Positions 75 to 62,280 of a stretch of 64,000 nt of DNA are shown here, one piece after another; position 1 is the first letter of the stretch, and each line of letters opens with the position of its first letter. The position numbers and the translations under genes are program-made. Source of the DNA: a virus; the IMG/VR virus record IMGVR_UViG_3300049172_000080, positions 31,701-95,700 of that record; one strand, written 5' to 3'. Below the pieces are notes generated by a model that did no database searches, was not told the origin of the DNA, and saw only the letters and a program-made list of their open reading frames with translations.

Positions 75-1250
75 ATGACGGAGCTGAAAGCCGACCGCCT
101 GAAGCCGGCCGAAGGGCAGCAGCCCGTGGCACTGGTCCGGGTGTACCGGCGCGGCCACGGCTGGGGCGAATTCCCCCTGTATGACCCCGCTGGTGCGGCG
201 AAGATGCGCCCGCTGTCCGCCAAGCAGCAGCGTGCCATCGAGGCCCGGCGGACCTGCCCGGAGTGCAATGAGGTGCGCGGATACGTCGTCTACATCAGGT
301 GTAACGACTGCCGGGCGAAGGCGCAGCAGGAGGCGCAGGACCGGCAGGCGCGCACCTGCGAGCGGTGCAGGCGCGAGGCCGGGGCCGCGCTGCCGAAGGA
401 CGTGCATGGCTGGCCGGCGTGCGATCCGTGCCGGATCCGCTACGCCATTTGCAAGCAACTCGCCGATGAGCGAGCGGCCGTGTGGCGCCGTACCTGCCCC
501 GGATATCCGGGCCACGACTGCACGGTGGAGACCGCGACGGATGACGAGATCACCGAAGCATGGAACGCCGGGGACTACACCGGGCCCTGGCGGTGTCCGC
601 CGTGCGGCGAGGCGTATGAGCGGTGGTACGAGGCTCAGCGCCACCAGGTCGGGGAGACGCGGGAGCGGCAGGTGGCCGGGCTGTCCGCATGGGCGCGGGA
701 CGCTCTCGCCGACCCGGCCGTGGTCGTCCTGGACACGGAGACGACCGGGCTGCACGACGGGGCACGCATCGTCGACCTGGCTGTGCTGACCGTCGGCGGG
801 GACGTCCTCGTGAACACGTTGCTCGACCCGGGCGAGCCGATCCCGGCCGAGGCGACGGACATCCACGGCATCACCGACGTGGACGTCCAGGGCCAGCCCC
901 GGTTCGGGGACGTCCTGGTGCAGCTCACCGGGGCGCTCGTCAACCGCCGGTGTCTGATCTACAACGACACGTTCGACGTCGGCCGGCTGCGCCACGAACT
1001 GACGATGCACTACCGCGAGGCCGGCCACGGCGACCCGGCTGCCTCGGCAGCCGCGTGGCTGGAGACGATGCGGTTCGAGGACGTGATGATGCCGTACTCG
1101 GACTGGTACGGGGAGTGGTCGGACTACCACGGGAACTACTGCTGGCAGCCGCTGTTCGGCGGGGACCACCGGGCCGCGTCGGACTGCCGCGCGGTGCTGG
1201 ACCGACTGCGCGAGATGGCGGCTGGGGTTGCTGACCCGGCTGAGGCATGA
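75..1250 (+). CDS. DnaQ-like (DEDDh) 3'-5' exonuclease with N-terminal multi-CxxC zinc-finger region
   Basis: C-terminal VVVLDTETTGL..DIHGITD exonuclease motifs. Several CxxC pairs upstream. The frame stays open to window position 3, so the true start may lie outside the window. Confidence 0.7.
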   Translation: MTELKADRLKPAEGQQPVALVRVYRRGHGWGEFPLYDPAGAAKMRPLSAKQQRAIEARRTCPECNEVRGYVVYIRCNDCRAKAQQEAQDRQARTCERCRREAGAALPKDVHGWPACDPCRIRYAICKQLADERAAVWRRTCPGYPGHDCTVETATDDEITEAWNAGDYTGPWRCPPCGEAYERWYEAQRHQVGETRERQVAGLSAWARDALADPAVVVLDTETTGLHDGARIVDLAVLTVGGDVLVNTLLDPGEPIPAEATDIHGITDVDVQGQPRFGDVLVQLTGALVNRRCLIYNDTFDVGRLRHELTMHYREAGHGDPAASAAAWLETMRFEDVMMPYSDWYGEWSDYHGNYCWQPLFGGDHRAASDCRAVLDRLREMAAGVADPAEA

Positions 1251-1263
1251 TTTAATCAAATCA
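1224..1263 (+). promoter_or_regulatory. Conserved phage promoter cassette (copy a)
   Basis: GGGGTTGCTG-N17-TTTAAT within palindrome TGATTTAATCAAATCA. Followed by the GACCAAGGAACGAGGA leader and the ATG at 1294. Confidence 0.6.
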
Positions 1264-1293
1264 AGAACACCGACCAAGGAACGAGGACTAGAC

Positions 1294-1581
1294 ATGGACG
1301 AAGCGCAGGCAGCGTTGGAAGGCGCGATCCGCAAAGCTGTGCCGGGGGACGGGGTGGACGCGATCGTCAACCTGATCGGCCCGCTGGTGGACGAGATTCG
1401 CCGCGACCAAGCCAAACGGGACGCTGACGTGCTGCGGCGGATGTCCGAGCGCAGCCCGAACACCACGCCGCCCCGGGGCGGCACGAACAGCCGCATGGTC
1501 TTCGGCACCGCTGCGCAGATGCTGGACCCCGACGGGGAGGGTTGGGGGCTGAACCTCCCGGACCACCTCAAGGACGCCTGA
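1294..1581 (+). CDS. hypothetical protein (95 aa)
   Basis: ATG preceded by the conserved leader GACCAAGGAACGAGGAC. Followed by a hairpin terminator. Confidence 0.6.
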   Translation: MDEAQAALEGAIRKAVPGDGVDAIVNLIGPLVDEIRRDQAKRDADVLRRMSERSPNTTPPRGGTNSRMVFGTAAQMLDPDGEGWGLNLPDHLKDA

Positions 1582-1597
1582 CCCAGACCGCAGACCG

Positions 1598-1623
1598 GCC
1601 CCGGAGTCTCGTGACTCCGGGGC
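1598..1623. terminator. Bidirectional stem-loop between convergent genes
   Basis: GCCCCGGAGTC / GACTCCGGGGC stem followed by TTCGTCG. Confidence 0.6.
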
Positions 1624-1632
1624 TTCGTCGTG

Positions 1633-2733
1633 TCACAGGAACCGGTCGACCAGGCCCTCGTATACCTTCACGGCCGCCGCCGCGTGCGTGCGCTTGAGCG
1701 CCTCGTCGTCCCGGCGACGGATGTAGCGCATCGTCGTGGAAATGTGGCTGTGGTCGGCGAACCGGCGGATATCGTCCGGCGTTGGCTTCCCGTCCTTCGA
1801 CGCCAGACCCTCGTCGTACATGTGGGTCAGCTTGCTGGCCCTCAGGACATGCGGGGTGAGGTCCCGGCCCGGCAGCACACCGGCCGCACGGCCGAGGCGG
1901 TTCAACAGCCGGTCCACGGCGTGCCGGTCCATCGGCCGGCCGCCGTCATCGAGCAGCAGGTGCCCGGAGGTGCGGCCCTCCCAGCACACCGCGCCCAGCT
2001 CGCACAGCTTCGGCGGAAGGGTGAACTTCCGGCCCTTGCCGCCCTTGCGGGTCAGGTCCAGCTTGCACTCCCCGCCGGACGGCTTCATGTGCTGCATCCC
2101 GGCCGCGCAGCACTCCGAGACGCGGCCGGCCAGCGTGTAGATGAGCACCGGCACGAGGGCCTGGCGCGGGGTCTGCGCCTGCTCCACCACAGCCTGGAAC
2201 TCAGGCACTTCGAGGATCGGCGTCATCGCCGCCTCGTCGTGCTGGTCGATCACCGGCCGGTCGTACCGGGTGATGGGGTTGATGATCTCCAGCCGGGTAC
2301 GGAACTTGGTGTACTCGATCAGCGAAGTCAGCGAGGACACCAGCCGGTTGACCCGGCGCGGCCCGAGCCCGATGTCCGTGGTCCAGGCCCTCCAGGCCGG
2401 GATGACGTCGGGGGTGATCGCCCCGAGGTACCAGGGCTCAGTACCGACCAGCTCCCGGGCGGCGCGTGCCCAGTGGCGGACGTCGTCGGCGTACTCGCGC
2501 CGGGTGCCGTCGCTCAGCCTCTCGGAGTTCAACCACCCCACCACGTGCTCGAACGTCTCGGGTGCGCACAGCTCGTGAAGCAGGTCGAGCCGGTGGACGC
2601 GCGGCCCGAGCCGGCGGTTCCTCGGGTCGCGCGGGGCGACCGTGCCCAGTTTCTCGCGCAGGCCCAGCACGGTACGCAGCGCCGCGTTCCCGTCGGCCGC
2701 GATGGTGGTGGGCTCGGTTGGAGCGAGTGTCAC
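1633..2733 (-). CDS. int: tyrosine recombinase / integrase
   Basis: AGRVSE (box I Arg), PHVLRAS (HxLR) and HSHISTTMRYI (His..Tyr) catalytic motifs. The GTG start overlaps the upstream stop (GTGA). Confidence 0.85.
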   Translation of the reverse strand: MTLAPTEPTTIAADGNAALRTVLGLREKLGTVAPRDPRNRRLGPRVHRLDLLHELCAPETFEHVVGWLNSERLSDGTRREYADDVRHWARAARELVGTEPWYLGAITPDVIPAWRAWTTDIGLGPRRVNRLVSSLTSLIEYTKFRTRLEIINPITRYDRPVIDQHDEAAMTPILEVPEFQAVVEQAQTPRQALVPVLIYTLAGRVSECCAAGMQHMKPSGGECKLDLTRKGGKGRKFTLPPKLCELGAVCWEGRTSGHLLLDDGGRPMDRHAVDRLLNRLGRAAGVLPGRDLTPHVLRASKLTHMYDEGLASKDGKPTPDDIRRFADHSHISTTMRYIRRRDDEALKRTHAAAAVKVYEGLVDRFL

Positions 2734-3203
2734 GGCGGATCCCAGATCGCCCCGCCCAAGCCAGCGGGGACAGCGCTGAATTCGCAATCGGTCCACCGAC
2801 AGACGTCCTCGGCTGCCGGGCCGTACTGGACGTACCAGGCGTGGTCGTGGAGTCTCTCGTCGCTCTCGGAAGCCTCAGCCGCCCACTCTTCGTCTGTTGT
2901 CGCCCACTCGTCCCGGTGTGCGAGCAGGATACCGAAGCCCCGGATCTGCCTATCAGGATCGCGGCGGTACGGCGTCCCGGCTTCCATGACGAGGTCACCC
3001 AACTCGGGGTCGCGCATACGTGCGTCCAGTTCGGCGACCTTCGGGGCCGGGTTGCCTACAGTCACCGCATCGCGAAGGGCGCCCGCAACGATGATCATGT
3101 GTCGACGGAGGGCGGTTGCCTTGTCGTCCAGGTCCAGCAGACCATCTCTGCGCGCGGTTCCGGAGACGCCCTCGTAGGGCTGCGGGTATCGGGTGTCGCT
3201 CAA
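2730..3203 (-). CDS. hypothetical protein (157 aa), co-transcribed with int
   Basis: TTG start preceded by the leader variant GACCACGGAATGAGGAACC. Acidic, coding-like composition. Confidence 0.55.
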   Translation of the reverse strand: MSDTRYPQPYEGVSGTARRDGLLDLDDKATALRRHMIIVAGALRDAVTVGNPAPKVAELDARMRDPELGDLVMEAGTPYRRDPDRQIRGFGILLAHRDEWATTDEEWAAEASESDERLHDHAWYVQYGPAAEDVCRWTDCEFSAVPAGLGGAIWDPP

Positions 3204-3392: not shown

Positions 3393-3493
3393 GCGCTGAG
3401 CCTACCCGGGACCATGATCACGTGGACGCAAAACACACGTTTTGCGCTTCGCCCAGAGCGATTCTGCGAGAACGACGTTCTGTGCCATCCTCC

Positions 3494-3532
3494 GGGTTGT
3501 CCTCTGCGAGATCCCATGGTTTAATTAATTCA
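3494..3532 (+). promoter_or_regulatory. Conserved phage promoter cassette (copy b)
   Basis: GGGTTGTCC-N17-TTTAAT within TGGTTTAATTAATTCA. Lies upstream of the GTG at 3580. Confidence 0.6.
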
Positions 3533-3579
3533 TCGGGCAGGATGAGCGGCCCGACTGACCAAGGAAAGAGGGACCGGCT

Positions 3580-4032
3580 GTGACTCGACGCGAGATGTCC
3601 AAGACGGAGCGCGCGGCCCGCGACGCAATGAAGCCCTACATCCGCGAGGGCCTCATCAGCCAGGGCGAGGCGAACAAGACGATCCGCGACAGCCTCGCCC
3701 TGGTGGAGAAGACCGTCCGGGACAACTACTCACCGGATCAGGCGTTCTACTACGCGGGCAAGATCGCAACGGCGCGCGAGGCGTTCGAGGCGCAGGAGAA
3801 CCCCGTGGTGCGTATCATCCTCCGGGGCAAACTGATGGGCTGGGAGATGTACGCGGCCGTCTACGTGGTGGTCCGCGAGGAGCACGGCGACACGGACGTC
3901 CCGATGGACCAGGCCGTGGAGACCATGGCCACCATCCGCGACACCGCGCGGGAGATGCGGACGGAGTCGCAGGCCTTCAAGGACATCGTCCGTGAGACCG
4001 AGCTGACGGCACCTGTGGAGGCCGCGCGATGA
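3580..4032 (+). CDS. hypothetical protein (150 aa)
   Basis: GTG start after the leader CTGACCAAGGAAAGAGGGACC. Its stop overlaps the next start (ATGA). Confidence 0.6.
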   Translation: MTRREMSKTERAARDAMKPYIREGLISQGEANKTIRDSLALVEKTVRDNYSPDQAFYYAGKIATAREAFEAQENPVVRIILRGKLMGWEMYAAVYVVVREEHGDTDVPMDQAVETMATIRDTAREMRTESQAFKDIVRETELTAPVEAAR

Positions 4033-4550: not shown

Positions 4551-4551
4551 C

Positions 4552-4590
4552 GGGTTGTGCCCCTGCCCGGACCATGATTTAATTAAGTCA
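4552..4590 (+). promoter_or_regulatory. Conserved phage promoter cassette (copy c)
   Basis: GGGTTGTGC-N17-TTTAAT within TGATTTAATTAAGTCA. The -35 element overlaps the end of the preceding CDS. Confidence 0.6.
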
Positions 4591-4632
4591 TCGGGCAGGG
4601 GCCCGGCAGACCAAGGAAAGAAGGAACTGACC

Positions 4633-4995
4633 ATGAACGCCACCGCCACCCGCGCCGCCTCCTCCACCATGATCCGCATTGCCGCCGTCCTGCGTGAGCA
4701 CGAGGCGCTGCTGGCCAAGTACGGCGTGCACGGCATCGTCGGCGTCATCGCCTACATCACCGCCGACGGCTACGGCCGCCGCTACGACGCCGACAGCCCC
4801 CTGCCCGCCCTGGCCGTCCGCATCGGCCGCATCGGCTCCCACGTCGCCGGCGTCCGCCGCGTCAACCGCCGCATCGTCCAGACCCACGAGGTGAGCGAGG
4901 CCCGCATGCGCGACGGCATGCTGCTCCAGGACATCGCCAACACCCTCGACTCCCTGCGCATGGGCGGCGGGCCTGTCGGCCGCGTCAGCGCCTGA
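4633..4995 (+). CDS. hypothetical protein (120 aa)
   Basis: ATG after the leader AGACCAAGGAAAGAAGGAACTGACC. Confidence 0.6.
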   Translation: MNATATRAASSTMIRIAAVLREHEALLAKYGVHGIVGVIAYITADGYGRRYDADSPLPALAVRIGRIGSHVAGVRRVNRRIVQTHEVSEARMRDGMLLQDIANTLDSLRMGGGPVGRVSA

Positions 4996-5058: not shown

Positions 5059-5439
5059 TTACACGAGCCAGTGCCGGCCACCAGCCGCACCGAAGGCGCC
5101 GACGTACACCTGGTGCGTGTAGTCGCCGGACTGCCAGCGTGTGCCCGCAGTGCCCGCGATGAAGCGATGGCACGTACGTTCGATAATACGGCGTAGCTCG
5201 GGGAACTGAAGGTTCAAGAGCAGACCCGACAGCTCCACCCCTTCCGGAGCGGGCAGGGCCGCCGCGTCCTCGTCCCCGGTCGCCTCGTGCACGGCGGCCC
5301 GGATGGCCAGGACGCGGACCGCGTCGGCCATGCTCCCGGCGACGTCCGGCATCTCCGGGTCAGCCATCCACCGGCCGTGGATCTCTGCCGCGCGGCAAGC
5401 GGTCATCGTGACGTCGGACAGAGTGCTGGTGGCGGCCAT
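5059..5439 (-). CDS. hypothetical protein (126 aa)
   Basis: Coding-like composition. Divergent from the GntR gene. Confidence 0.5.
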   Translation of the reverse strand: MAATSTLSDVTMTACRAAEIHGRWMADPEMPDVAGSMADAVRVLAIRAAVHEATGDEDAAALPAPEGVELSGLLLNLQFPELRRIIERTCHRFIAGTAGTRWQSGDYTHQVYVGAFGAAGGRHWLV

Positions 5440-5488
5440 GCGGTCCTCCGTGTGTGATTTATCGAATTCATGGGCATGCCCCTGTGAG

Positions 5489-5521
5489 ACTTCCTACAGG
5501 AAGCACCCTCCTGTAGGAAGT
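5489..5521. promoter_or_regulatory. Inverted repeat, candidate GntR operator
   Basis: ACTTCCTACAGGAAG-N4-CTCCTGTAGGAAGT lies in the divergent intergenic region, 60 bp upstream of the GntR start. Confidence 0.4.
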
Positions 5522-5579
5522 TAGGGCACCGTTCCGGTACCGTCAACCACATCCGATAGGAAGACCCGAGGAGCTAAGC

Positions 5580-6257
5580 ATGGCTGGCACCGTGGCACGC
5601 ATGGTCAATTACCTGAAAGCGCGCGTTGACCTGGGAACACTGAAGCCTGGCGACCGACTGCCACCCACCACCGCACTGATGAAGCAGTTCATGATCAGCG
5701 ACAACGCGGTCTACCGGGGAATCGCGCTCTTGAAGGCCGAGGGCTACGTCACCTCCCAGCAGGGCAAGGGGGTGTTCGTCGCCGACCGCCGCCGGCTCAT
5801 CGTGGGTGAGAAGCGGATCCAGGGCATTACGCAAGCCGGTGAGACGATCAACCACAAGCGCAGCGAACGCGTGCAGGCGCCGGACTGGGTCGCCGAGTTC
5901 CTCGGGGAGGGCGAGTGCGTGAATCGCGTTCGTACCGTGAGCCGTGGGGACGCGGTCGTGCAGGCGTCGCAGTCGTGGGTGCACCTCGCGGTTGCCGACG
6001 TCGTTCCCGAGATCGATGAGCCCCAGGCCTGCGACCCGACCTGGCAAGCCGTTTACCAGGACCGCTCGGGCAACCCCGTGAAGGTGGCGTCCAAGACGGG
6101 CATCGTCCGCACCACCACGGACGAGGAGCGTGAGGAGTTCGGCCTGGACGCCGACCGGGAGGTGCTGGCCGTCCGTAGCATCTACGTCACCGGCAATACG
6201 GTGATCGGTGTCGGCGAGGCCGCGTACGCGCCGGATAACCCTTTGATCATGTCCTGA
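5580..6257 (+). CDS. GntR-family transcriptional regulator (HutC/UTRA-like)
   Basis: N-terminal winged HTH LPPTTALMKQFMISDNAVYRGIALLKAEGYVTSQQGKGVFV, plus a C-terminal effector-type domain of about 150 aa. Confidence 0.8.
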   Translation: MAGTVARMVNYLKARVDLGTLKPGDRLPPTTALMKQFMISDNAVYRGIALLKAEGYVTSQQGKGVFVADRRRLIVGEKRIQGITQAGETINHKRSERVQAPDWVAEFLGEGECVNRVRTVSRGDAVVQASQSWVHLAVADVVPEIDEPQACDPTWQAVYQDRSGNPVKVASKTGIVRTTTDEEREEFGLDADREVLAVRSIYVTGNTVIGVGEAAYAPDNPLIMS

Positions 6258-6281: not shown

Positions 6282-6305
6282 CCCCGGAGCCTTCACGCTC
6301 CGGGG
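6282..6305 (+). terminator. Hairpin terminator after GntR gene
   Basis: CCCCGGAGC / GCTCCGGGG stem followed by a TTTCGTTGTGT tail. Confidence 0.6.
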
Positions 6306-6320
6306 TTTCGTTGTGTCGGA

Positions 6321-6359
6321 GAGTTGCATGCATCACACAACTGTGGTTTAATTAATCCA
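6321..6359 (+). promoter_or_regulatory. Conserved phage promoter cassette (copy e)
   Basis: TTGCAT-N17-TTTAAT within TGGTTTAATTAATCCA, about 150 nt upstream of the precursor ORF. Confidence 0.55.
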
Positions 6360-6509
6360 TGATCGGCGACCCGTGGGAGCTGGTCTTCCACGGCGTGAAC
6401 ACCGGCCGGGACTGAGTTCACGTACAGCCGACCACCCGGCGGAGAGCAAGGAACCAGGAACACAGGAACGGGTCGTCAACGCGCGGCCCCACAACAGAAG
6501 GACTACGTC

Positions 6510-6779
6510 ATGAGTGCTACGGCCACTCCGTTCGCTCTTCTCGTCGAGATTCCGGCACCTCCCGTCAACCGGACTCCGGCGTACACGTACGACAAGTCCC
6601 GCCAGCTCAACGTGACGGCGGCCGGTGACGCTGTGATCGACGTCAGTTCCGTCGCGGCCCCCTCGCACACGCACAACCACAAGGGCTGGAAGAAGGACGA
6701 CGACTGGGCGTCCCCGGACGGGCTGTTCGGACCGACGTTCACGCACAACGCCTCGGGTCACAAGAAGGACGACGACTGA
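6510..6779 (+). CDS. graspetide (omega-ester/amide RiPP) precursor peptide, two core repeats
   Basis: 89 aa. The leader carries a PFALLVEI helix motif (compare microviridin PFFARFL). Two Thr/Ser...KKDDD repeats are present: SHTHNHKGWKKDDD and the C-terminal TFTHNASGHKKDDD. The ORF ends 3 nt before the ATP-grasp gene. Confidence 0.65.
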   Translation: MSATATPFALLVEIPAPPVNRTPAYTYDKSRQLNVTAAGDAVIDVSSVAAPSHTHNHKGWKKDDDWASPDGLFGPTFTHNASGHKKDDD

Positions 6780-41693: not shown

Positions 41694-41726
41694 GGGACTC
41701 GATTCGATTCCTTGGTCAGCGGTAGG

Positions 41727-43111: not shown

Positions 43112-43146
43112 GGCGGTTCCTCATTCCTTGGTCTGATCGAGCACAA

Positions 43147-43185: not shown

Positions 43186-43192
43186 CGCACGA

Positions 43193-43227
43193 CGAAGCCC
43201 CGGGCCGCGTACGGCTCCAGGGCTTCG
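43193..43227. terminator. Hairpin terminator (same family, imperfect)
   Basis: CGAAGCCCCGG / CCAGGGCTTCG. Confidence 0.55.
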
Positions 43228-45183: not shown

Positions 45184-45226
45184 GGGGTCCTACTTTCCTG
45201 GTTCCTTGGTCTACGACCTAACCGAT

Positions 45227-45270
45227 CGATTTAGCTAAATCATACCTGTGCCCCGGGGTGAGGACAACCC
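45227..45270 (-). promoter_or_regulatory. Conserved phage promoter cassette (copy k, 22-nt spacer variant)
   Basis: Minus-sense GGGGTTGTCC-N22-TTTAGC. Palindrome CGATTTAGCTAAATCA. Confidence 0.5.
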
Positions 45271-45299
45271 CGGGGCACAGATTCAGCGGTGACGCCTGG

Positions 45300-46995: not shown

Positions 46996-47047
46996 GGTCG
47001 GTCCCTGCTTTCCTTGGTCCGTCGTTCCGGCCGGTCGGCCGTTCCGA

Positions 47048-47087
47048 TGGATTAACTAAATCATAGCTGTCGGGCGGGCACAACCCC
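47048..47087 (-). promoter_or_regulatory. Conserved phage promoter cassette (copy l)
   Basis: Minus-sense GGGGTTGTGC-N17-TTTAGT. Palindrome TGGATTAACTAAATCA. Confidence 0.6.
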
Positions 47088-47097: not shown

Positions 47098-47127
47098 GAG
47101 CCCCGACCCAGTTGTGGGTCGGGGCTC
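47098..47127. terminator. Hairpin terminator
   Basis: GAGCCCCGACCCA / TGGGTCGGGGCTC. Confidence 0.6.
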
Positions 47128-48452: not shown

Positions 48453-48689
48453 TCAAGCCCGGCTCGGGCACTTGTGCGGCAGTCGGGCGAGCACGTAGTA
48501 CCGGGGCTGCGGGTTCTCGCGCGTGGCGTATCGACCGCACTTCAGCACGTCGGCCAGATACCACTTGCCGGTCTTGGCGGACTGCTTCCACGCGAGTTTG
48601 TCGTCCGCACACCGCTTGCAGGTGACCAACCGGCCGGTGACCTCCGCTGCGTTGTTCGGTGGCTGTCCGTCAGCGGTGAAGTGCTCCAT
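48453..48689 (-). CDS. hypothetical protein (78 aa)
   Basis: ATG after GAGGAGACGCAGCC. Contains CKRC..C Cys residues. Confidence 0.5.
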   Translation of the reverse strand: MEHFTADGQPPNNAAEVTGRLVTCKRCADDKLAWKQSAKTGKWYLADVLKCGRYATRENPQPRYYVLARLPHKCPSRA

Positions 48690-48715
48690 GGCTGCGTCTC
48701 CTCGGTCGGCGTCTA

Positions 48716-48756
48716 TGACTTAATTAAATCATAGGTCTGCCGACGGGACAACCCCC
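48716..48756 (-). promoter_or_regulatory. Conserved phage promoter cassette (copy m)
   Basis: Minus-sense GGGGGTTGTCC-N17-TTTAAT. Palindrome TGACTTAATTAAATCA. Confidence 0.6.
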
Positions 48757-48795
48757 AGACGCGCCGGAGCCCGGGACCGCAGGGCCCCGGGCTCC

Positions 48796-50831: not shown

Positions 50832-51281
50832 TCACTGGTTCGCTGCGTCCCAGATGGCGCGGCCTACGGTGCCCGGCCTCCGGCTCGCGAGAGCGTGCTG
50901 CGTGGGGCCGAAGGTCTCGCCGTTGCGCTCGGACCAGTAGCAGATGTACGCCTCGGGGACCCAGGACACGGCGCCCGGAGTCCGGGGCTGGGCTGGGGTG
51001 ACGGCGCCGACGATGTACCGCTTGCCCTTGACGGTAGCGATCCGGCGTCCCTTGGCGTCCGTCTCGGCGGGCTGCGCGGCCGGGGCGTCGACCAGGGTCA
51101 TGCGGACGTGCCGGCCGTCGCGGTAGGCGATCCAGTGCGCCGTACGGCCCGAGGACATCTCGCGGACGTCGCGCTTGCCGTCCATCATCGCGTGGTTGAC
51201 CTCGGCCATGGCTTCGCGGACGGAGACGTGGGTGACGGTGCCGTTCTCGGTCCGCTCGTAGACCTTGGCCTGTGCGCTCAT
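50832..51281 (-). CDS. hypothetical protein (149 aa)
   Basis: ATG (MSAQAKV) after GACCAAGGAAAGCAGGACATC. Confidence 0.55.
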   Translation of the reverse strand: MSAQAKVYERTENGTVTHVSVREAMAEVNHAMMDGKRDVREMSSGRTAHWIAYRDGRHVRMTLVDAPAAQPAETDAKGRRIATVKGKRYIVGAVTPAQPRTPGAVSWVPEAYICYWSERNGETFGPTQHALASRRPGTVGRAIWDAANQ

Positions 51282-51314
51282 GATGTCCTGCTTTCCTTGG
51301 TCGGTCCTTCTCGA

Positions 51315-51354
51315 TGACTTAATTAAATCATAGCTCCGGGGGAGGCACAACCCC
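51315..51354 (-). promoter_or_regulatory. Conserved phage promoter cassette (copy n)
   Basis: Minus-sense GGGGTTGTGC-N17-TTTAAT. Palindrome TGACTTAATTAAATCA. Confidence 0.6.
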
Positions 51355-55689: not shown

Positions 55690-55917
55690 TCAGCGTCGGA
55701 CGTAGGAACCCGTGGCGTCGTCGTACCGGATGTACGCCTTACGGGCCTCCAGCGCGTTAGCGATCTCGGGCACGTTGGCCGGGTTGACGGTGCCCACGAA
55801 GCCGCGCCACGAGAACACAGCGGCCTGCTGTCCGTCCAGGGTCACCTTGCTGATGCGCTGGCCCCAGAGCTGGAACCGCTCGTTGGTTCCGAGGTGAACC
55901 ACGATCTTCTTAGCCAT
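55690..55917 (-). CDS. hypothetical protein (75 aa)
   Basis: ATG (MAKKIVVHL) after GGGAGAAGAG. Confidence 0.5.
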   Translation of the reverse strand: MAKKIVVHLGTNERFQLWGQRISKVTLDGQQAAVFSWRGFVGTVNPANVPEIANALEARKAYIRYDDATGSYVRR

Positions 55918-55955
55918 CTCTTCTCCCACGGTCCACCGCCAGGGCTGTTCCCGAC

Positions 55956-55995
55956 TGATTTAATTAAACCATCAGTCCGGCGACCGCGCAACCCC
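55956..55995 (-). promoter_or_regulatory. Conserved phage promoter cassette (copy o)
   Basis: Minus-sense GGGGTTGCGC-N17-TTTAAT. Palindrome TGATTTAATTAAACCA. Confidence 0.6.
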
Positions 55996-56059
55996 TCAAC
56001 GCAAAGAACCCCGGCCCTCGTCGGGTCCGGGGTTCTCCGGGTCGGCGGTGCCATGAGCC

Positions 56060-56617: not shown

Positions 56618-56803
56618 TCAGCGGTGGTCCTTCCACTCGAAGAACAGGATGCAGACACCGATCGCAAGGAGGGCCCCACCAACCTCGCCGAGTGCCACGT
56701 GCATCGGAGTGGGCGCGAAACCCAGGGCCCCGAGGGCCACGGCGAGCACAACAACTCCAGCCGCCGCCAGAGTCAGGCCCGATACGGTCCAGCTTGTACG
56801 CAT
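56618..56803 (-). CDS. small membrane protein (61 aa)
   Basis: Two TM segments. ATG after GACCAAGGAACGAGGAAGTC. Confidence 0.45.
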   Translation of the reverse strand: MRTSWTVSGLTLAAAGVVVLAVALGALGFAPTPMHVALGEVGGALLAIGVCILFFEWKDHR

Positions 56804-56834
56804 GACTTCCTCGTTCCTTGGTCGGTGGTTCAGT

Positions 56835-56874
56835 TGGATTAACTAAACCATCTCCCCGGCGACCGCACAACCCC
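56835..56874 (-). promoter_or_regulatory. Conserved phage promoter cassette (copy p)
   Basis: Minus-sense GGGGTTGTGC-N17-TTTAGT. Palindrome TGGATTAACTAAACCA. Confidence 0.6.
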
Positions 56875-57519: not shown

Positions 57520-59514
57520 TTACCCGACGGCCGCGAGACTCCCGAAATCGATCTCGTACAGGGCTGCCATGTTGGGCGGAGTGACCCTCTTCAGCAGACC
57601 CTCGTCCGCCAGGCTTTCGACCTCCGCGTAGACCCAGCCACGGGGCCAGCCGGTCAGCTCGGGGAGGTCCATCAGATCCTCCACGCTGACGTTCTGCTGG
57701 CCGGACTGGCGCAGGATCTCCAGCCGGTTCAGCAGCTCCGCCCGCGCGTCCGCCTCGGACATCCGCGATGTCGCCGGAGCTGCGAACGTCACCTCGGCGC
57801 CGCGCGGCGCGGCCAGCGGTTCGCTCGTGTCGATGCCGTCGTCGCTGACTGTGTTCAGATCGCTGACCTGCGCAAAGTCAGTGTCCACGTCGTCCTCCAG
57901 GGTTGCCTCCACGGCCGCCGAGGCTGCCTCGTCCTGCTGCTCGTCCACGACGCCCTCGGCGAGGATGCGGTAGCTGCCCGCGTCCAGCTCCGCCCAGTAC
58001 GGCCGGGTGACCTGGATCATCTCCGCGCGGTCGGCCGCCTTCACGCGCGGCGCCCGGCCGTCAGCCGACCAATGGATCCTGTCCGTGCCCGTGACCTCGG
58101 CATACAGCGAACCGGGGGAGTTGTTGGCCCACTTGGTCGGGTCGGCCCCGGCCTCCAGGGTCTCCGCCTCCAGGGAGTACTTCGCGTCCTGGAACTCCTT
58201 CTGCCCGTGGGCCAGGGACTGAGCGAAATGACCCCTGGTCTCCCGACTGATCTTGTTGTGCGGCATGGTCTGCATCGACGCGCAGAAGTGCACGCCGACT
58301 GACCTCAGCTTGCGCAGCGCCTCGTCGGCCTCATCGTCCACCACCATCATCACGTCGGCAGCCTCCTCGATGTCCACGAAGATCGCCGGGATGCCGTGCA
58401 GCGTGTACATCTCCGGCACCCACTGCTTGTAGCCGACCTTGCCGTCTGCCCTGGTCAGCGTGCCGAACAGGCCCGCGCGGTACTCGATGAGCGGGATGAG
58501 GTTCCGCACGAGCTGCTCGGTGGTCTCGCGGGTCTTCGCGGCCAGGCCCAACACCTCCTCGATGTCGCCGAACGACTGCCGGAACTTGGCCGGGTCGCCG
58601 ACCACGGGGACCACGTCAGTGCGCTCGCGCATCTGGAGAATCGCCGTGCAGATGGTCTCCGTCTTGCCCGCGCCGGTCATGCCGGTGCACTTCGTGTGGG
58701 CCAGTGGCCTGGGGTTTTCGTCGTCGTCGGAGCCGACGATCCACCAGTCGATGTCCGTGCCGTCGGTGCGCGGACCGAGCCAGATCGGGTAGTCAGCGAT
58801 GGACTTGCCGAGGTGGCGCGGGCCCGTCCAGATGACCGGCTTGGCCGCGTCCTGAGCGCGGGTGAACGTCACGTCCACCTGACCCTCGTGACCTGCGACT
58901 TTGAGCACCTTGACCTGGTCGGCACCGACCCCGGCGACGGCCGCGATCTGCTCCCGGGCGTCCTGCGCCTCCTTCGCCGTGGTCGGGGCGTCCAGGTGTA
59001 CACGGGCGCGCAGCTCCTGCTCGGACTCCGTGACCTTGCCGACCCGGGCGTCCTTGAACGCACGCACCTTGGCCAGCAGACCGTCGTTTCCGCTGGTCTC
59101 CGGCGACTTGTCGGAGTCCCTCACGCCCGACAGAGCGGCATGCCGGACGCACCAGGCGACCGACAGGACCAGACCGCCGATCGACCAGGCCTTGAAGACG
59201 TCGGCCTGCCAAGGCCGGATGGTGATGGCGAAGAGTTCCCAGGTCAGGACGGCGATGACGAACACCGTGACCATGGTCCGGGTCTCCTGGCGGCGCACCG
59301 CCCAGGTCGACCAGGTCACGTACGCGAGGTACGCGAACCCGAGGGCGAGAAAGGACATCCACAGCGGGCTGTCCCCGATGACGAAGTGGAGTACCAGGGC
59401 GAGCGGCCAGGCCGCCCCCGTGATGGCCCACGGCAGGACGTACGAGGTGATGCGCTCGGGCACCCTGAACAGGGCGTATCCACGCACGCGGTGATTGTTC
59501 GACACGTCGTCCAC
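57520..59514 (-). CDS. FtsK/SpoIIIE/TraB-like dsDNA translocase (membrane-anchored, C-terminal wHTH)
   Basis: Four N-terminal TM segments. Walker A GMTGAGKTE and Walker B IFVDIEEA. C-terminal GWPRGWVYAEVESLADEGLLKRV. GTG start at 59514, just after the upstream stop. Confidence 0.85.
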   Translation of the reverse strand: MDDVSNNHRVRGYALFRVPERITSYVLPWAITGAAWPLALVLHFVIGDSPLWMSFLALGFAYLAYVTWSTWAVRRQETRTMVTVFVIAVLTWELFAITIRPWQADVFKAWSIGGLVLSVAWCVRHAALSGVRDSDKSPETSGNDGLLAKVRAFKDARVGKVTESEQELRARVHLDAPTTAKEAQDAREQIAAVAGVGADQVKVLKVAGHEGQVDVTFTRAQDAAKPVIWTGPRHLGKSIADYPIWLGPRTDGTDIDWWIVGSDDDENPRPLAHTKCTGMTGAGKTETICTAILQMRERTDVVPVVGDPAKFRQSFGDIEEVLGLAAKTRETTEQLVRNLIPLIEYRAGLFGTLTRADGKVGYKQWVPEMYTLHGIPAIFVDIEEAADVMMVVDDEADEALRKLRSVGVHFCASMQTMPHNKISRETRGHFAQSLAHGQKEFQDAKYSLEAETLEAGADPTKWANNSPGSLYAEVTGTDRIHWSADGRAPRVKAADRAEMIQVTRPYWAELDAGSYRILAEGVVDEQQDEAASAAVEATLEDDVDTDFAQVSDLNTVSDDGIDTSEPLAAPRGAEVTFAAPATSRMSEADARAELLNRLEILRQSGQQNVSVEDLMDLPELTGWPRGWVYAEVESLADEGLLKRVTPPNMAALYEIDFGSLAAVG

Positions 59515-59519
59515 CGCCC

Positions 59520-60089
59520 CTACACCACGTTGAAGCCGCCACGGCGGCCCCCAGGACGGTGAACACTGCGGTCTGACTCCAGCTCGCCCATGAAACCGTC
59601 GAACCGGCGCCACGCCTTGACCGCACTCTGAGCCCCACCAGCACACGCGTTGGCCATGTGGTCGAGATCCTTGCCGATCAGACGCAGCGTGTTGGCCAGG
59701 CTGGCACGCTGCATGGGGTTCATCCACCCTTCGTGGGCCTGCTTCACCTGCGCCCGCGCAGCGGCCTTGAGCTGGCCTTCTGCCAGCTTCGCGCTGACGG
59801 CGAGGTAGTTGAGAATGGCCCGGTACGCCTCGCAGAAGGCGTGCAGGTCGTCCTGGTTGCTCAGCTCCATCGACCCGATGGACTGGGCGAGTTGAGCGAT
59901 GCCCTGCCCGCGCGGGCCGCCCGGCCGGGACGGCTTGTGACCTGCGGCTTTGGAGCTGCCGCCGTTCGACGGGAGCGGGTTGCCCTGACCGTCCAGGCCT
60001 CGCTTGTGGAGCTGGTCGTTGGTCTGTCCGTTGGCCCGGCCCGAAGCGCTGAACGGGTTGTCGACGTGGTTCTGTCCGATACGACTCAT
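59520..60089 (-). CDS. hypothetical protein (189 aa)
   Basis: Gly/Asn-rich N-terminus and a helical C-terminus. Leader AGGAATCAGGAAGAGGAATCAGGA. Confidence 0.55.
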   Translation of the reverse strand: MSRIGQNHVDNPFSASGRANGQTNDQLHKRGLDGQGNPLPSNGGSSKAAGHKPSRPGGPRGQGIAQLAQSIGSMELSNQDDLHAFCEAYRAILNYLAVSAKLAEGQLKAAARAQVKQAHEGWMNPMQRASLANTLRLIGKDLDHMANACAGGAQSAVKAWRRFDGFMGELESDRSVHRPGGRRGGFNVV

Positions 60090-60206: not shown

Positions 60207-61430
60207 CTACGCCTCCTTGGGGAAGGTCCGTTGAATCGCCTTGCGCAGGCTCTCCGACTTCGGGCCGCCCGACTTCGTGTCCCCGTGTCCCGGCAGGGTC
60301 GGGACAATCGCGCGGATCTCGTTCTTGCTGTGTCCCGTCTCGTACAGAAAGCGGACGATGCCGGTCAGGTTGTCCCGGACGTCATCCGGGACATCGACGA
60401 GGGTCTGTCCCTCGCCCTGGGACACGGCCGGCTCGGCCGGGACAATCTCCGGCAGCTTGTCCAGGGACACCCGGACGGTGGGACGCGGCCGGGACATCGT
60501 CGCCGGGACAGCGGAGCGGGAGCGGGACATCGTCGCCGGGACAGCCGGCTCGGGCGCCGGGACAACGTCCTGCGGGACACGGGACATGTCCCGCTGCGGG
60601 ACAACGAGGGCCGGGACATCGGCCGTGTCCCGGGGGACAGCCGTCTCTCGGGACACGATCGCCGGGACATCGCTCTGTCCCGTGTCCCCGTCGAGCGGGA
60701 CAGCCGGGGCCGGGACAAGGGACAACGACCAGTCGTGCCGCGCGCCGATGTTGGCGAGCGCCTTGACCGACTTGCGCCGGACGACGCGGGCGACGATGGT
60801 GGCCTCCGCCTGCGCGGCCTCCTCCTCGTTCAGTCCGTGACGGGCCGCGTCGATCTGCTTCGCGAGACGGCCCACCAGGCGGGTGTGCTTGCGCTTGCCG
60901 GGCTTGGCGGCTGCCAGACGGTCCGCCAGGTCCACAGCCTTGTCGGCAGCGCGGCTGCGGGCGATGGCGGCAGAGTTGGCGCCCCGCCGGCCGATGCCCA
61001 GGAAGGCCGTCAGACGCTCCTTCAGCTCACGCAGGGCGGAGGCGAGCAGGCCGTCCGACTTGGCGCCTGACATGCGGAGTTCCAAGCCCAGCAGCAGGTG
61101 CAGAAGCACAGCCAGCAGCACCGGGCCGAGGACGACTCGCACCGGGCCGCCGACGCTGCCCGAGACCGTGAAGGCGGGGATGCCCTGCACCAACACGGCC
61201 GCATAGGCGAGGTACGCGGGGCCCTTGGTCCGGGTGGCCCAGGCGTAGACCGTGAGGGCGACGATGGCCGCCTCGGCCACGCCGCACAGGACCATGCGCT
61301 CCTCGTCGTTGGTGATCTGGAGCGCAGTCTCCATGAAGCGGTAGCTGGTGTCGGCGGACATGGCCAGAGCCAGTGCGGCCGGGACAAGCAGGCCGTAGGT
61401 GGCTGCCTGTGCGCGGGACATGCGGGACAT
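60207..61430 (-). CDS. DUF2637-like membrane protein with Val-Pro-rich repeat region
   Basis: Four N-terminal TM segments. Central basic helix. VP(A) dipeptides recur about 12 times and AVPATMSR occurs twice. Two tandem leader copies lie upstream. Confidence 0.6.
   Translation of the reverse strand: MSRMSRAQAATYGLLVPAALALAMSADTSYRFMETALQITNDEERMVLCGVAEAAIVALTVYAWATRTKGPAYLAYAAVLVQGIPAFTVSGSVGGPVRVVLGPVLLAVLLHLLLGLELRMSGAKSDGLLASALRELKERLTAFLGIGRRGANSAAIARSRAADKAVDLADRLAAAKPGKRKHTRLVGRLAKQIDAARHGLNEEEAAQAEATIVARVVRRKSVKALANIGARHDWSLSLVPAPAVPLDGDTGQSDVPAIVSRETAVPRDTADVPALVVPQRDMSRVPQDVVPAPEPAVPATMSRSRSAVPATMSRPRPTVRVSLDKLPEIVPAEPAVSQGEGQTLVDVPDDVRDNLTGIVRFLYETGHSKNEIRAIVPTLPGHGDTKSGGPKSESLRKAIQRTFPKEA
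60279..60730. repeat. CGGGACA/TGTCCCG heptamer array embedded in coding sequence
   Basis: About 20 GGGACA and about 9 TGTCCC in 450 bp. Includes the palindrome GGGACATGTCCC and a 23-bp tandem CGGGACATCGTCGCCGGGACAGC present twice. Confidence 0.85.
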
Positions 61431-61472
61431 GGTCTGTCCTCTCTTCCTTGGTCACGATTCCTTGGTCGGTGC

Positions 61473-61508
61473 TGATTTCCTTAAATCATCGTACACGCTA
61501 CCTGTCCC
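61473..61508 (-). promoter_or_regulatory. Conserved promoter cassette variant (copy q)
   Basis: Palindrome variant TGATTTCCTTAAATCA. The -35 position is occupied by a GGGACA repeat unit. Confidence 0.5.
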
Positions 61509-61768
61509 GTTGTCCCGTGTCCCGGCAGACCTTTGTCCCGGGACATGTCCCGGAGGGGACATGGACTGTTGTCCCGCCGTCATGTCCCAGCCTTGGTGTC
61601 CCGTTGTCCCGTCCGATAGGGACACCCCCTGCGTCCCGATGTCCCTCTGTCCCAGCGTCCGATGTCCCGGGACACGACGAAGCCCCCACGGTCTGTCCCG
61701 TGGGGGCCGTTGTCCCTCTGTCCAGTTGTCCCTCTGTCCCGTTGTCCCGTCAGATGCTGTCCCTGTCC
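61501..61768. repeat. Intergenic TGTCCC(G) array
   Basis: 18 TGTCCC plus 4 GGGACA in 268 bp. Two perfect TGTCCCGGGACA palindromes, at 61534 and about 61662. Confidence 0.9.
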
Positions 61769-62211
61769 GGAGCCCGGAGGATCACGTACTGGCCCGGACG
61801 ATCGGAAACCGGCTTCAGCACACCCTCGTCGGTGAGGCTCTTCAGCTCGCCTACGATCCAGGACCGGCTCTGACGGATCTCCGCGAAGCTGGCCGCGTCC
61901 ACCGTTCGCGCCTCCGCGTCCGGCTCCTCGTGCATCCAGCAGATGAGATTGCGCAGAGCCTTCCGGCTCGTCTCGACGCGCTCCTCAGCTTCCCGGCGTT
62001 CCCGGGCCGCCCGGCGCTCCAGCACCTCGTAGTGCGCCTGCTCGTCGCGAGTGAGCCGGGTCAGCTCCTCGGCCCACGCTGAGGCGAGTGCCCGTCCCCG
62101 GAAGTCCATCGCACCGATGTGCTCCCGCGCAGCCTCGGGGTCGTCGCGGGTGATCGCGTTCAGGGCGCTGAGGGCGCGGTCCTCTGGACCGACGACAGTC
62201 TGCTTGGTCAT
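61750..62211 (-). CDS. winged-helix protein (153 aa)
   Basis: ATG (MTKQTVVG) after GACCAAGGAACGAGGAACC. C-terminal SRSWIVGELKSLTDEGVLKPV resembles the FtsK-like tail. Confidence 0.5.
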   Translation of the reverse strand: MTKQTVVGPEDRALSALNAITRDDPEAAREHIGAMDFRGRALASAWAEELTRLTRDEQAHYEVLERRAARERREAEERVETSRKALRNLICWMHEEPDAEARTVDAASFAEIRQSRSWIVGELKSLTDEGVLKPVSDRPGQYVILRAPDRDSI

Positions 62212-62235
62212 GGTTCCTCGTTCCTTGGTCACCGA

Positions 62236-62280
62236 TGATTTCCTTAAATCATCCTACCCGGGTCGGCTCGGCACAACCCC
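62236..62280 (-). promoter_or_regulatory. Conserved promoter cassette variant (copy r, 22-nt spacer)
   Basis: Palindrome TGATTTCCTTAAATCA. Minus-sense GGGGTTGTGC lies 22 nt upstream of TTTAAG. Confidence 0.5.

Follow-up and report, generated by a model that had tools for sequence, protein, structure and literature searches.

What do the repeated, promoter-like cassettes that precede so many genes in this viral DNA do, and are they one thing or several? The window analyzed here is a stretch of 64,000 nucleotides (nt), positions 31,701 to 95,700 of IMG/VR record IMGVR_UViG_3300049172_000080, in which a sequence-only reading had described 17 cassettes, each with an AT-rich dyad behind a G-rich box. 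Motif retrieval, synteny, and the distribution of the protein encoded beside its ParA gene together place the window as about two-thirds of a ∼95-kb temperate phage-plasmid of Streptomyces. Its closest annotated relative is plasmid pS1D4-14.2 (Streptomyces sp. S1D4-14, 98,815 bp), which is syntenic over the whole window with protein identities of 35 to 87%. The cassette is a real, strongly nonrandom, family-wide regulatory cassette. We lean, if slightly, toward reading it as a shared promoter with a built-in operator, which would switch some 20 to 25 transcription units together. The sequences show the motif with its geometry, orientation, and conservation, and they show that the right arm of the dyad is kept outside promoter context; from them we infer that transcription starts at these sites, that a protein binds the dyad, and which kind of protein that would be.

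Number, placement, and geometry of the cassettes

All 17 copies were present where the sequence-only reading had put them. The first four of its coordinates are the starts of plus-strand cassettes, with dyads at 1248, 3517, 4575, and 6344, and the remaining thirteen are the dyad starts of minus-strand cassettes, which read leftward (Table 1). The 13-mer TTTAATTAAATCA with at most one mismatch gave 18 strand-hits and the 16-mer dyad with at most three mismatches gave 15 sites; the corresponding figure in 100 dinucleotide-preserving shuffles was 0.00 for each. The sites at 43147 and 56835 needed four mismatches for the 16-mer, yet the full upstream box is present at both. The description of the copies as near-identical holds for the bipartite motif but not for the core taken alone; the exact 13-mer is found only at 41654 and 55956, and the other sites carry one to four differences.

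A G-rich TTG box lies exactly 14 nt ahead of the dyad, and 17 nt ahead of TTTAAT, in 13 copies, reading GGGGTTG in 10 of them and GGGTTG or GGTCTTG in 3. Only the TTG of the box is left at 36940 (TATTGTCT) and 6344 (GAGTTGCAT), the box is 5 nt further off at 45227 and 62236, which bears out the longer spacing reported for two copies, and the site at 61473 has no -35 box. Counted by register, TTG stands at the fixed position in 14 to 15 of the 17 window copies, and in 2 it lies 5 nt farther upstream. The -35 hexamers of the window are TTGTGC, TTGTCC, TTGCGC, TTGCAT, and TTGTCT.

Every copy faces a start codon, in keeping with the orientation first described, at a distance of 18 to 62 nt past the dyad (151 nt for 6344). 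The copies had also been called intergenic, which is true of all but the one at 1248; there, the -35 box and spacer lie within the 3' end of the upstream open reading frame (ORF), whose TGA stop codon forms dyad positions 1 to 3. A scan with a position weight matrix (PWM) added one further, degenerate dyad in the window (5455 to 5470); it found no copies in the structural operon (∼6.5 to 36.5 kb). Many related elements have the same bipartite motif. The k-mer spectrum of the window is led by three repeat families, namely, a ribosome-site motif, a terminator, and the dyad.

Conservation among related elements

Conservation was assessed on matches to TTAATTAA (at most one mismatch) in high-G+C loci, kept if TTG stood in the -35 register on just one strand; 243 unique copies from related elements resulted. 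Positions 0 to 12, A-TG-(G/A)-TTTAATTAA, are near-invariant (1.0 to 2.0 bits), and A7 and T9 show no variation. The GGGG ahead of TTG carries 0.5 to 1.5 bits (1.1 to 1.5 bits for the three G residues nearest TTG), the spacer sequence is variable, and right-arm positions 13 to 16 carry 0.5 to 0.7 bits. The AT-rich box lies exactly 17 nt downstream in 183 of the 695 unique GGGTTG sites of related loci.

Two classes can be told apart by the right arm. Class A, defined by a required CA at positions 15 and 16, comprises 131 unique copies from phage-plasmids, and its right arm, N-(T/C)-C-A-T, is the mirror of the left A-T-G-(A/G), with A0 T1 G2 R3 answered by Y14 C15 A16 T17. Class B comprises 53 unique copies, carried by large chromosomal contigs from many species of Streptomyces; it has TGGTG or TGATG at that place and no outer symmetry. 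Palindromic pairs number 7.2 of 9 in class A versus 4.0 of 9 in class B. The class B copies (loci L065, L066, L080, L082, L085 to L087, L095 to L097, L101, L102, L106, L110, L113, L118, L121, L123, L128, L132, L133, L135, and L137) are followed by a conserved leader of ∼85 nt (GTCGGAAGGGGAGGGCAACCCCCCGACCGAC...CTCTCACCAGGAGG) and then by mobile-island genes (DUF6409, DUF3560, and DUF2786-like). Their core, GGGTTG-N17-ATGGTTTAATTAA without the dyad arm, is found on chromosomal contigs of Streptomyces and Streptacidiphilus, sometimes with adjoining tRNA genes and often with TTGACC as the -35 hexamer. Within the class B leader, the opposite strand carries a further GGGTTG box at a similar distance from the AT core.

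This split of the right arm argues that the promoter core is common to two kinds of mobile elements and that the arm completing the dyad belongs to the phage-plasmids. Conservation of the dyad thus applies family-wide to the left 12 to 13 bases, which are invariant, but the right arm is lineage specific. When the strict motif pattern was run over one genome per species, the box was seen only on phage-plasmid elements and chromosomal islands, which makes a conserved host regulon with this box unlikely.

The sites as probable promoters

We consider it probable that the sites are promoters; all of them point at a gene and stand at the front of transcription units, behind terminators. Their geometry had been likened to that of sigma-70/HrdB promoters, and the TTG box, the 17-bp spacer, and the TG-n-hexamer arrangement agree with this. 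The -35 hexamer resembles TTGACA in its TTG, the spacer to TTTAAT, expected at 16 to 18 bp, is exactly 17 bp in 14 of the 17 copies, and the TG of an extended -10 element stands at -15/-14, with T1 in 236 and G2 in 241 of the 243 conserved copies. The hexamer itself is where the likeness fails; TTTAAT has the T-12 and T-7 of a TANNNT element but T at -11 and is no normal HrdB -10. The predicted -1/+1 is the CA of the right arm, and the 5' hairpins begin 1 to 3 nt later. The alternative -10 registers TAATTA (19 bp) and YATGRT (12 bp) failed more of these features than TTTAAT at 17 bp, nor did any of the other registers supply A at -11 together with T at -7.

The sole sigma-70 consensus match between 36 and 56 kb is the variant with 5 extra nt at 45227. 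Its orthologue in pS1D4-14.2 (93583; 43583 in locus L170) has standard 17-bp spacing and an intact core. Relative to that orthologue, the hairpin at 45227 is 5 bp longer, the AT core has decayed (TTTAGCTAAATCG), and a canonical promoter, TTGTCC-N17-TATGAT, is present, as if the ordinary promoter type had taken the place of the special one. Across the elements, five unique TATGAT variants of this sort were found. At 36940, firing in both directions had been proposed. The dyad does lie between divergent genes, the ParA gene on the plus strand and a 90-amino-acid (aa) gene on the minus strand, but a TTG box exists for the minus direction only; with none for the plus direction, a two-way promoter is therefore unsupported. 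The dyad is found ∼60 nt upstream of the ParA gene (37016, plus strand) in four elements, that of the window and 3 others, and at 36940 it could influence the ParA gene.

That the host HrdB polymerase reads the cassettes unaided is plausible, if on balance somewhat doubtful; that they need a dedicated sigma factor or activator is possible and a little more doubtful still.

Terminators, leaders, and the ribosome-site motif

The cassettes recur as modules, in the order of an upstream hairpin (often), GGGGTTGYSC, the 17-bp spacer, TGRTTTAAT, CA, a stem-loop (sometimes), GACCAAGGAAnGAGGAA, and the start codon. A strong, GC-rich, separate hairpin stands upstream of seven copies, and several of these hairpins share one family, GAAGCCCCGG...CCGGGGCTTC followed by GTCGTGTCC. 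Several -35 boxes had been placed inside the stems of preceding terminators, with a possible coupling of termination and initiation. We found the -35 box within a terminator-like hairpin at 3 copies only (36559, 41654, and 45227), but the hairpin is separate in the seven just mentioned. Hairpin and AT-rich core together score as an intrinsic terminator at 36559 and 41654. Coupling is structurally plausible at the three copies, where the hairpin holds the -35 box and the AT-rich core would act as the T-tract; elsewhere the terminator is separate.

A stable hairpin 1 to 3 nt past the dyad opens seven leaders, and seven other leaders are short and unstructured. Such 5' leader hairpins are enriched, with folding energies of -8 kcal/mol or lower in 58% of class A leaders versus 27% of shuffles. 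No Rfam family matched at gathering thresholds in the window or in the 10 kb past its right end (L171). Most leaders end in the ribosome-site motif GACCAAGGAAnGAGGAA. This 10-mer occurs in 24 exact copies, and in 36 copies with at most one mismatch, all on the coding strand (window positions 1272 to 62230). Thirty of the 36 lie 8 to 19 nt ahead of a start codon, many of them within operons (examples are at 3557, 4609, 36920, 42454, 43133, 49075, 49405, 50796, and 56823), and none lies in the structural genes. Only the GGA/GAGGA parts of the motif can pair with the 16S rRNA tail.

The dyad as a possible operator

The sequence-only reading had taken the dyad for the operator of a dimeric regulator. 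What speaks for this is that the right arm is kept at sites without promoter geometry, but the left arm is far better conserved than a symmetric operator would lead one to expect. The right arm, A(A/T)(T/C)CA, is retained without the standard geometry at 5455, 61473, 62236, and 45227 in the window, at 11768, 12414, 17432, 21600, and 39539 in pS1D4-14.2, and at L171:2839 and L171:6420 past the window. The dyad occurs independently of one fixed promoter context, as an operator should. Transcription would start elsewhere at these off-geometry sites, so that start-site preference cannot explain their right arm, and persistence of the arm at sites without this promoter type points to a probable operator. 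Some off-geometry dyads overlap the -10 or -35 element of canonical TANNNT promoters, and TGATTTAAGGAAATCA is identical at orthologous places in the window (61473) and in pS1D4-14.2. Taken for itself, the assignment of the dyad as an operator is, in our judgment, evenly balanced.

Combined, these features suggest how the system could work. The sites would be a common promoter that heads nearly all nonstructural transcription units and probably the structural block too. It would have sigma-70 architecture, with GGGGTTGYSC as the -35 element, a 17-bp spacer, TG-R-TTTAAT as the extended -10 element, and a start at the right-arm CA, and it would sit in a reusable module of terminator hairpin, promoter, optional 5' stem-loop, GACCAAGGAAnGAGGAA, and start codon. 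The AT-rich core would be the -10 and melting region, extended in the phage-plasmid lineage to an 18-bp dyad, ATGRTTTAATTAANYCAT, which would most likely be the operator of one element-encoded dimeric regulator. In this way, ∼20 to 25 units would be shut or opened together, setting a plasmid-prophage state against a lytic or transfer state.

Several points weigh against a shared promoter with a built-in operator. A was found at -11 in 0 of the 243 copies, the base being always T, though one mismatch was allowed in the selection, and the -11 position is critical for group 1 sigma factors. A consensus scan requiring A at -11 flagged no standard cassette because T stands there instead. The same elements also contain canonical TANNNT promoters; GTGACA-N17-TAAGAT precedes a conserved 89- to 93-aa winged-helix gene, and TATCAT follows the dyad at L171:6420 and at 17432 of pS1D4-14.2. 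This coexistence hints at two recognition modes. Conservation within the dyad is asymmetric, with position 13 unconstrained and R3 not covarying with Y14, and the CA at positions 15 and 16 could simply be a start-site preference. No dyad-binding protein was identified; the GntR regulator is not common to the elements that carry the motif, and the partner of ParA lacks a recognizable DNA-binding fold.

Candidate sigma factors and binding proteins

A phage-specific sigma factor had been offered as one possible reader of the cassettes. Neither among the scanned window proteins nor in L171 nor in the NCBI annotation of pS1D4-14.2 did we find a sigma factor or sigma region 2 protein. Two large proteins were considered as RNA polymerases of the element's own and rejected; the one of 735 aa is FtsK/TraB-like, an ATPase that has membrane segments, and the one of 1032 aa, encoded past the window, is an exonuclease, which disposes of a single-subunit RNA polymerase there.

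The GntR gene (5580 to 6257) was also considered as the source of the dyad binder. It is replaced by an unrelated XRE-like gene in pS1D4-14.2 and in Streptomyces sp. NPDC017936, relatives that carry the same motif, and GntR is therefore not the common binder. The replacement suggests exchangeable immunity modules. Other palindromes, CTTCCTACAGGAAG, adjoin the GntR gene, and the region from 5440 to 5580 holds the dyad at 5455 together with two palindromes, CTTCCTACAGGAAG and CCTCCTGTAGGAAG. This region is a probable genetic-switch region.

The partner of ParA, encoded at 37720 to 38646 (279 aa; P0001), was considered as a ParB-like binder. The protein is conserved, its confident AlphaFold model (mean pLDDT, 80) is all helical, it has no Pfam domain, and it showed no fold or sequence match; the best Foldseek E value against the PDB was 1.7, and a profile search against the sequences of solved structures returned nothing. 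The protein was found only on ∼92- to 102-kb Streptomyces contigs, with a 100%-identical copy on a 95.7-kb contig, and it may represent a novel type of partition partner.

Two further proteins are of interest, each as a candidate binder only. The conserved 89- to 93-aa winged-helix protein is encoded at 9135 to 9404 of L171 and at 14438 to 14790 of pS1D4-14.2. The canonical promoter of its gene (in the region 9090 to 9404 of L171) overlaps a dyad-like GATTAAGATAAATC, an arrangement that would be expected of an autoregulated repressor gene. The relatives also encode a conserved 272-aa protein with three tandem LuxR/sigma-region-4-like helix-turn-helix (HTH) domains, which matches a PHROG family annotated "sigma factor" at 1e-15. 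Its gene heads the terminase block (L167 39539 to 40505 in pS1D4-14.2, and also L019 and L045) and is preceded by a perfect-arm dyad, ATGGTTTAACAAAACCAT (ATGGTTT-N4-AAACCAT), and another dyad-like site; a -35 box is missing. In the element to which the window belongs, the corresponding region falls beyond the window. The WhiB-like protein completes the list of remaining candidates, all of which either are encoded outside the window or lack a known function.

Alternative explanations

A dedicated factor might be the only reader of the promoters, be it an element-encoded or unusual host sigma factor or a protein that retargets the host polymerase; it would recognize TGGTTTAATTAA with T at -11. 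In that case, the dyad would be no operator but a by-product of a palindromic, AT-rich -10 element, and the cassettes would be a delayed (middle) class that the factor switches on. The invariant T at -11 fits this well, as does the absence of TGnTAnnnT at that register among the 695 GGGTTG sites, and the twelve contiguous conserved bases exceed what a -10 element normally needs. The coexisting canonical promoters precede regulator genes, such as the winged-helix gene, and the core is found without the dyad in unrelated chromosomal islands. The three-HTH protein, with its match to a sigma factor family and the perfect-arm dyad ahead of its gene, would be a conceivable reader, and phage phiC31, which has its own repeated early promoter and the sigma-like gp12, provides a precedent. 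However, the sigma region 2 search found nothing, phiC31 gp12 has no homologue here, and the islands and phage-plasmids have only DUF3560-type proteins in common within the stretches compared. Moreover, a principal sigma factor reads precisely such signals (TTG at -35, TG at -15/-14, and 17 bp of spacer), and the right arm persists where the promoter type is absent. We judge this explanation rather unlikely. Also unlikely, if slightly less so, is a bolder form in which phage-plasmids and unrelated chromosomal islands would use a private promoter class whose -10 element, TGGTTTAATTAA, makes canonical reading impossible and would call for a new sigma factor, retargeting protein, or melting mechanism; in the phage-plasmids it would be fused to the 18-bp operator, so that one regulator could flip ∼25 units between plasmid and virus life.

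The dyads could instead be chiefly dispersed sites for partition and maintenance, or for a global plasmid repressor, on the model of KorA/KorB of RK2 or the centromere repeats of N15, with the promoter likeness being secondary. The element has a ParA gene with a family-restricted partner gene, in four elements the ParA gene has a dyad upstream of it, extrachromosomal phage-plasmids carry the full dyad whereas integrated islands lack it, and some dyads have no -35 box at all. A symmetric site, however, leaves the oriented TTG box at fixed distance and the stronger left arm unexplained, and neither ParB nor any other DNA-binding protein matched the fold modeled for the ParA partner, which together make this improbable to us. 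An RNA-level signal seems more improbable again. On this view, the AU-rich, single-stranded AUUUAAUUAAAU, flanked by GC-rich hairpins, would serve either for RNase E-type cleavage or as the U-tract of the upstream terminator within long polycistronic transcripts. Hairpins do flank many copies on both sides, the hairpin and core at 36559 and 41654 score as an intrinsic terminator, and hairpins directly past the core would stabilize a processed 5' end; yet the TTG box is fixed at 17 nt though the spacer varies and in most cases does not fold into a hairpin, seven short leaders lack structure, copies lead divergent units that receive no incoming upstream transcript (36940, and 31333 of pS1D4-14.2), and no Rfam family matched. 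Least credible is that Lsr2, the host's xenogeneic silencer, or some other nucleoid protein nucleates on the AT-rich cores and so quiets the element in a host of 70% G+C. Lsr2 prefers AT-rich DNA, and a run of 10 to 12 A/T bp is extreme in DNA of 65 to 72% G+C, but base-specific invariance (TG-R-TTTAATTAA, with A7 and T9) and a fixed partner box exceed what binding driven by composition would need. We continue, with the graded strength given above, to favor a shared promoter with a built-in operator.

The element and its relatives

The coordinates of the cassettes, of the hairpins upstream of them, and of selected genes are collected in Table 1. The G+C content of the window DNA is 65 to 72%. 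A megablast search with 20 kb of the window against deposited phages gave no match, and the portal protein is ∼33% identical to portals of Gordonia, Mycobacterium, and Arthrobacter phages. The motif GGGTTG-N17-TGRTTTAATTAA was found in 59 IMG/VR stretches, and many stand-alone Streptomyces contigs of ∼92 to 99 kb also carry it, among them contigs of 92 to 96 kb from S. sp. NRRL S-455, S. africanus NRRL B-24243, S. lonarensis NCL716, and other strains. The syntenic pS1D4-14.2 has 22 dyads, 15 of them with TTG in the -35 register. The classic Streptomyces plasmid-phage pZL12 was rejected as a reference; it gave 6 weak protein matches, lacks the motif, and has no comparable repeat, and it is only distantly related to the element in the window.

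Table 1. Cassettes, upstream hairpins, and selected genes in the window
Feature	Position	Strand	Sequence elements and remarks
Cassette 1, standard spacing	1224-1296	+	GGGGTTGCTG, 14 nt, dyad TGATTTAATCAAATCA (1248-1263), GACCAAGGAA at 1272, ATG 1294
Tyrosine integrase gene	1633-2796	-	Left arm
Cassette 2, standard	3493-3582	+	CGGGTTGTCC, dyad TGGTTTAATTAATTCA (3517-3532), GACCAAGGAA at 3557, GTG 3580; 5' leader hairpin, leader folding energy -11.9 kcal/mol
Cassette 3, standard	4551-4635	+	CGGGTTGTGC, dyad TGATTTAATTAAGTCA (4575-4590), 5' leader hairpin, GACCAAGGAA at 4609, ATG 4633
Eighteenth dyad, degenerate, no -35 box	5455-5470		TGATTTATCGAATTCA; PWM score 22.8; divergent region between gene 5059-5439 (-) and GntR gene 5580-6257 (+)
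GntR/HutC regulator gene	5580-6257	+	Left arm
Terminator-like hairpin just upstream of cassette 4	6282-6305	+	CCCCGGAGC...GCTCCGGGG then TTTCGTTGTG
Cassette 4	6320-6512	+	TTGCAT, 17 nt, TTTAAT; dyad TGGTTTAATTAATCCA (6344-6359); 151-nt leader; ATG 6510; leads block running into portal and capsid genes
Portal gene, then Mu-F-like, capsid, and tape-measure genes	Portal at 8795		Left arm
WhiB-like gene	34344-34757		Right arm; last gene of operon led by cassette 5
Cassette 5, standard	36509-36598	-	GGGGTTGTCC, dyad 36559-36574, 5' leader hairpin, ATG 36511; -35 in loop of terminator-like hairpin 36577-36605
Cassette 6	36894-36979	-	TATTGTCT box, dyad TGATTTAATCAAATCA on - strand (36940-36955), leader hairpin, GACCAAGGAA, ATG 36896
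ParA gene, then partner gene	From 37016	+	Right arm
Cassette 7, standard	41613-41693	-	GGGGTTGTGT, perfect dyad TGATTTAATTAAATCA (41654-41669), ATG 41615; -35 in loop of hairpin 41672-41700
Cassette 8, standard	42429-42532	-	GGGGTTGTGT, dyad 42493-42508, strong leader hairpin, GACCAAGGAA, GTG 42431
Terminator-like hairpin upstream of cassette 8	42542-42574	-	GAAGCCCCGG...CCGGGGCTTC
Cassette 9, standard spacing, weaker box	43109-43186	-	Box GGTCTTGCGC, dyad TGGTTTAGTTAATCCA (43147-43162), GACCAAGGAA, ATG 43111
Terminator-like hairpin upstream of cassette 9	43194-43226	-	GAAGCCCCGG family
Cassette 10, +5 spacing	45181-45271	-	GGGGTTGTCC, 22 nt, dyad TGATTTAGCTAAATCG (45227-45242), ATG 45183; canonical TTGTCC-N17-TATGAT promoter overlaps left arm; -35 enclosed by hairpin 45248-45278
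Cassette 11, standard	46993-47087	-	GGGGTTGTGC, dyad 47048-47063, leader hairpin, GACCAAGGAA, ATG 46995
Terminator-like hairpin upstream of cassette 11	47098-47127	-	-28 kcal/mol
Cassette 12, standard	48687-48755	-	GGGGTTGTCC, dyad 48716-48731, short leader, ATG 48689
Terminator-like hairpin upstream of cassette 12	48766-48795	-	-30 kcal/mol
Cassette 13, standard	51279-51354	-	GGGGTTGTGC, dyad 51315-51330, GACCAAGGAA, ATG 51281
Cassette 14, standard	55915-55995	-	GGGGTTGCGC, dyad 55956-55971, ATG 55917
Terminator-like hairpin upstream of cassette 14	56006-56035	-	GAACCCCGG...CCGGGGTTC
Cassette 15, standard	56801-56874	-	GGGGTTGTGC, dyad TGGTTTAGTTAATCCA (56835-56850), GACCAAGGAA, ATG 56803
FtsK/TraB-like ATPase gene	57520-59727		Right arm
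Site 16, no -35 box	61428-61488	-	Dyad TGATTTAAGGAAATCA (61473-61488), perfect outer arms, non-AT center; two GACCAAGGAA copies; ATG 61430; gene downstream encodes 407-aa membrane protein
Cassette 17, +5 spacing	62209-62280	-	GGGGTTGTGC, 22 nt, dyad TGATTTAAGGAAATCA (62236-62251), GACCAAGGAA, ATG 62211; GATGAT 17 nt from TTGTGC
Terminator-like hairpin upstream of cassette 17	62292-62321	-	

The right arm, which reads leftward from 36.5 kb, also contains many small genes as well as methylase and sugar-modifying genes. Its FtsK/TraB-like ATPase has N-terminal membrane segments and is encoded in a tailed-phage genome, which suggests that the element could also spread by Streptomyces-type conjugation. 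Such conjugative spread has reportedly been seen with pZL12. GGGACA/TGTCCC hexamers are densely clustered at 61503 to 61625 (12 in ∼120 bp), upstream of the site at 61473, where some form GGGACATGTCCC palindromes, and ∼18 more lie within the 407-aa gene (60400 to 60800), with the FtsK/TraB-like gene adjoining. The cluster may represent a repeat array for transfer (clt-like) or replication. At the other end, the window starts one base into an ATG (TGACCGAC...), and the first ORF (1 to 1250), for which pS1D4-14.2 offers no counterpart, encodes cysteine-rich repeats together with an exonuclease domain of the RNase T type.

Significance and comparison with known systems

If the favored reading is true, the cassettes would be the regulatory backbone of a widespread and essentially unstudied group of Streptomyces phage-plasmids, carried by dozens of ∼92- to 102-kb contigs, one of which was deposited as a plasmid. 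A compact cassette reused 20 to 25 times suits dissection of how lytic genes are silenced in a virus that is also a plasmid, and Streptomyces engineering could adopt it as an expression part that is insulated and switchable. T at -11 within textbook sigma-70 geometry, together with the core in chromosomal islands, makes the reader of the promoter directly testable; if the host polymerase reads it unaided, this would be an ordinary though neat family of phage promoters. The literature searched contained no description of the motif, and searches with motif strings matched only PacI cloning primers.

By architecture, phiC31 is the nearest case. It is a temperate Streptomyces phage in which about a dozen near-identical promoters lead short operons and a palindrome is repeated; its genome has the early promoter GGTTGCCGACTCCCTTAC in ∼11 copies and the palindrome CCTACTCACGTGAGTAGG (conserved inverted repeat [CIR]) in 16. 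The G-rich GGTTGC start of its promoter box resembles GGGGTTGYSC here. The phiC31 repressor binds the CIRs, and terminators without poly-U precede the early promoters. Promoter and palindrome are separate in phiC31, whereas the palindrome is fused to the -10 element here, and the sequences are unrelated beyond GGTTG. In addition, phiC31 is a 41-kb integrating phage with the sigma-like gp12 (Sigma70_r2), in contrast to the 95-kb phage-plasmid described here, and neither its promoter and CIR sequence families nor a homologue of gp12 was found in the window or related loci. Reuse of one palindromic operator at many promoters, often over the -10 element and coupled to partition, is known from KorA/KorB of RK2 and from SopB of N15. 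Variants TTTAGCTAAA in our set (45227 and L171:2839) resemble the KorA operator core; however, the hosts and proteins are unrelated, and no homologue of KorA, KorB, or ParB was found.

Dozens of sites for one repressor across a temperate actinophage genome, silencing the prophage, are also a feature of Cluster A mycobacteriophages, some of which are extrachromosomal prophages (PMC7157519). Their stoperators, bound by proteins such as L5 gp71, are 13 bp long, asymmetric, and orientation dependent, and they lie within operons, mostly away from promoters (PMC3203893, PMC4351075). The sites described here do not have these properties of stoperators, being dyads that are fused to a -35/-10 pair and head transcription units. 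In Cluster O mycobacteriophages, a 17-bp dyad, TGTTCGGNNNCCGAACA, is present more than 30 times and is predicted to bind a dimeric protein (PMC4351075), but its sequence is different and the repeats lie mostly away from promoters. The SAS/ESAS elements of Cluster K phages, a 13-bp motif just ahead of start codons that often has inverted repeats before it (PMC3203893), parallel GACCAAGGAAnGAGGAA and the leader hairpins here. The SAS sequence, GGGATAGGAGCCC, is nevertheless different from GACCAAGGAAnGAGGAA and stands 3 to 8 bp ahead of the start, versus 8 to 19 nt for GACCAAGGAAnGAGGAA, and a role in translation was assigned to the Cluster K motifs, which have no promoter box linked to them. The cassette itself also resembles extended -10 sigma-70/HrdB promoters, with which it shares the TTG at -35, the 17-bp spacer, the TGn, T at -12 and -7, and CA at the predicted -1/+1; it differs from them in having T in place of the near-universal A at -11 and three invariant bases (TAA) past the hexamer.

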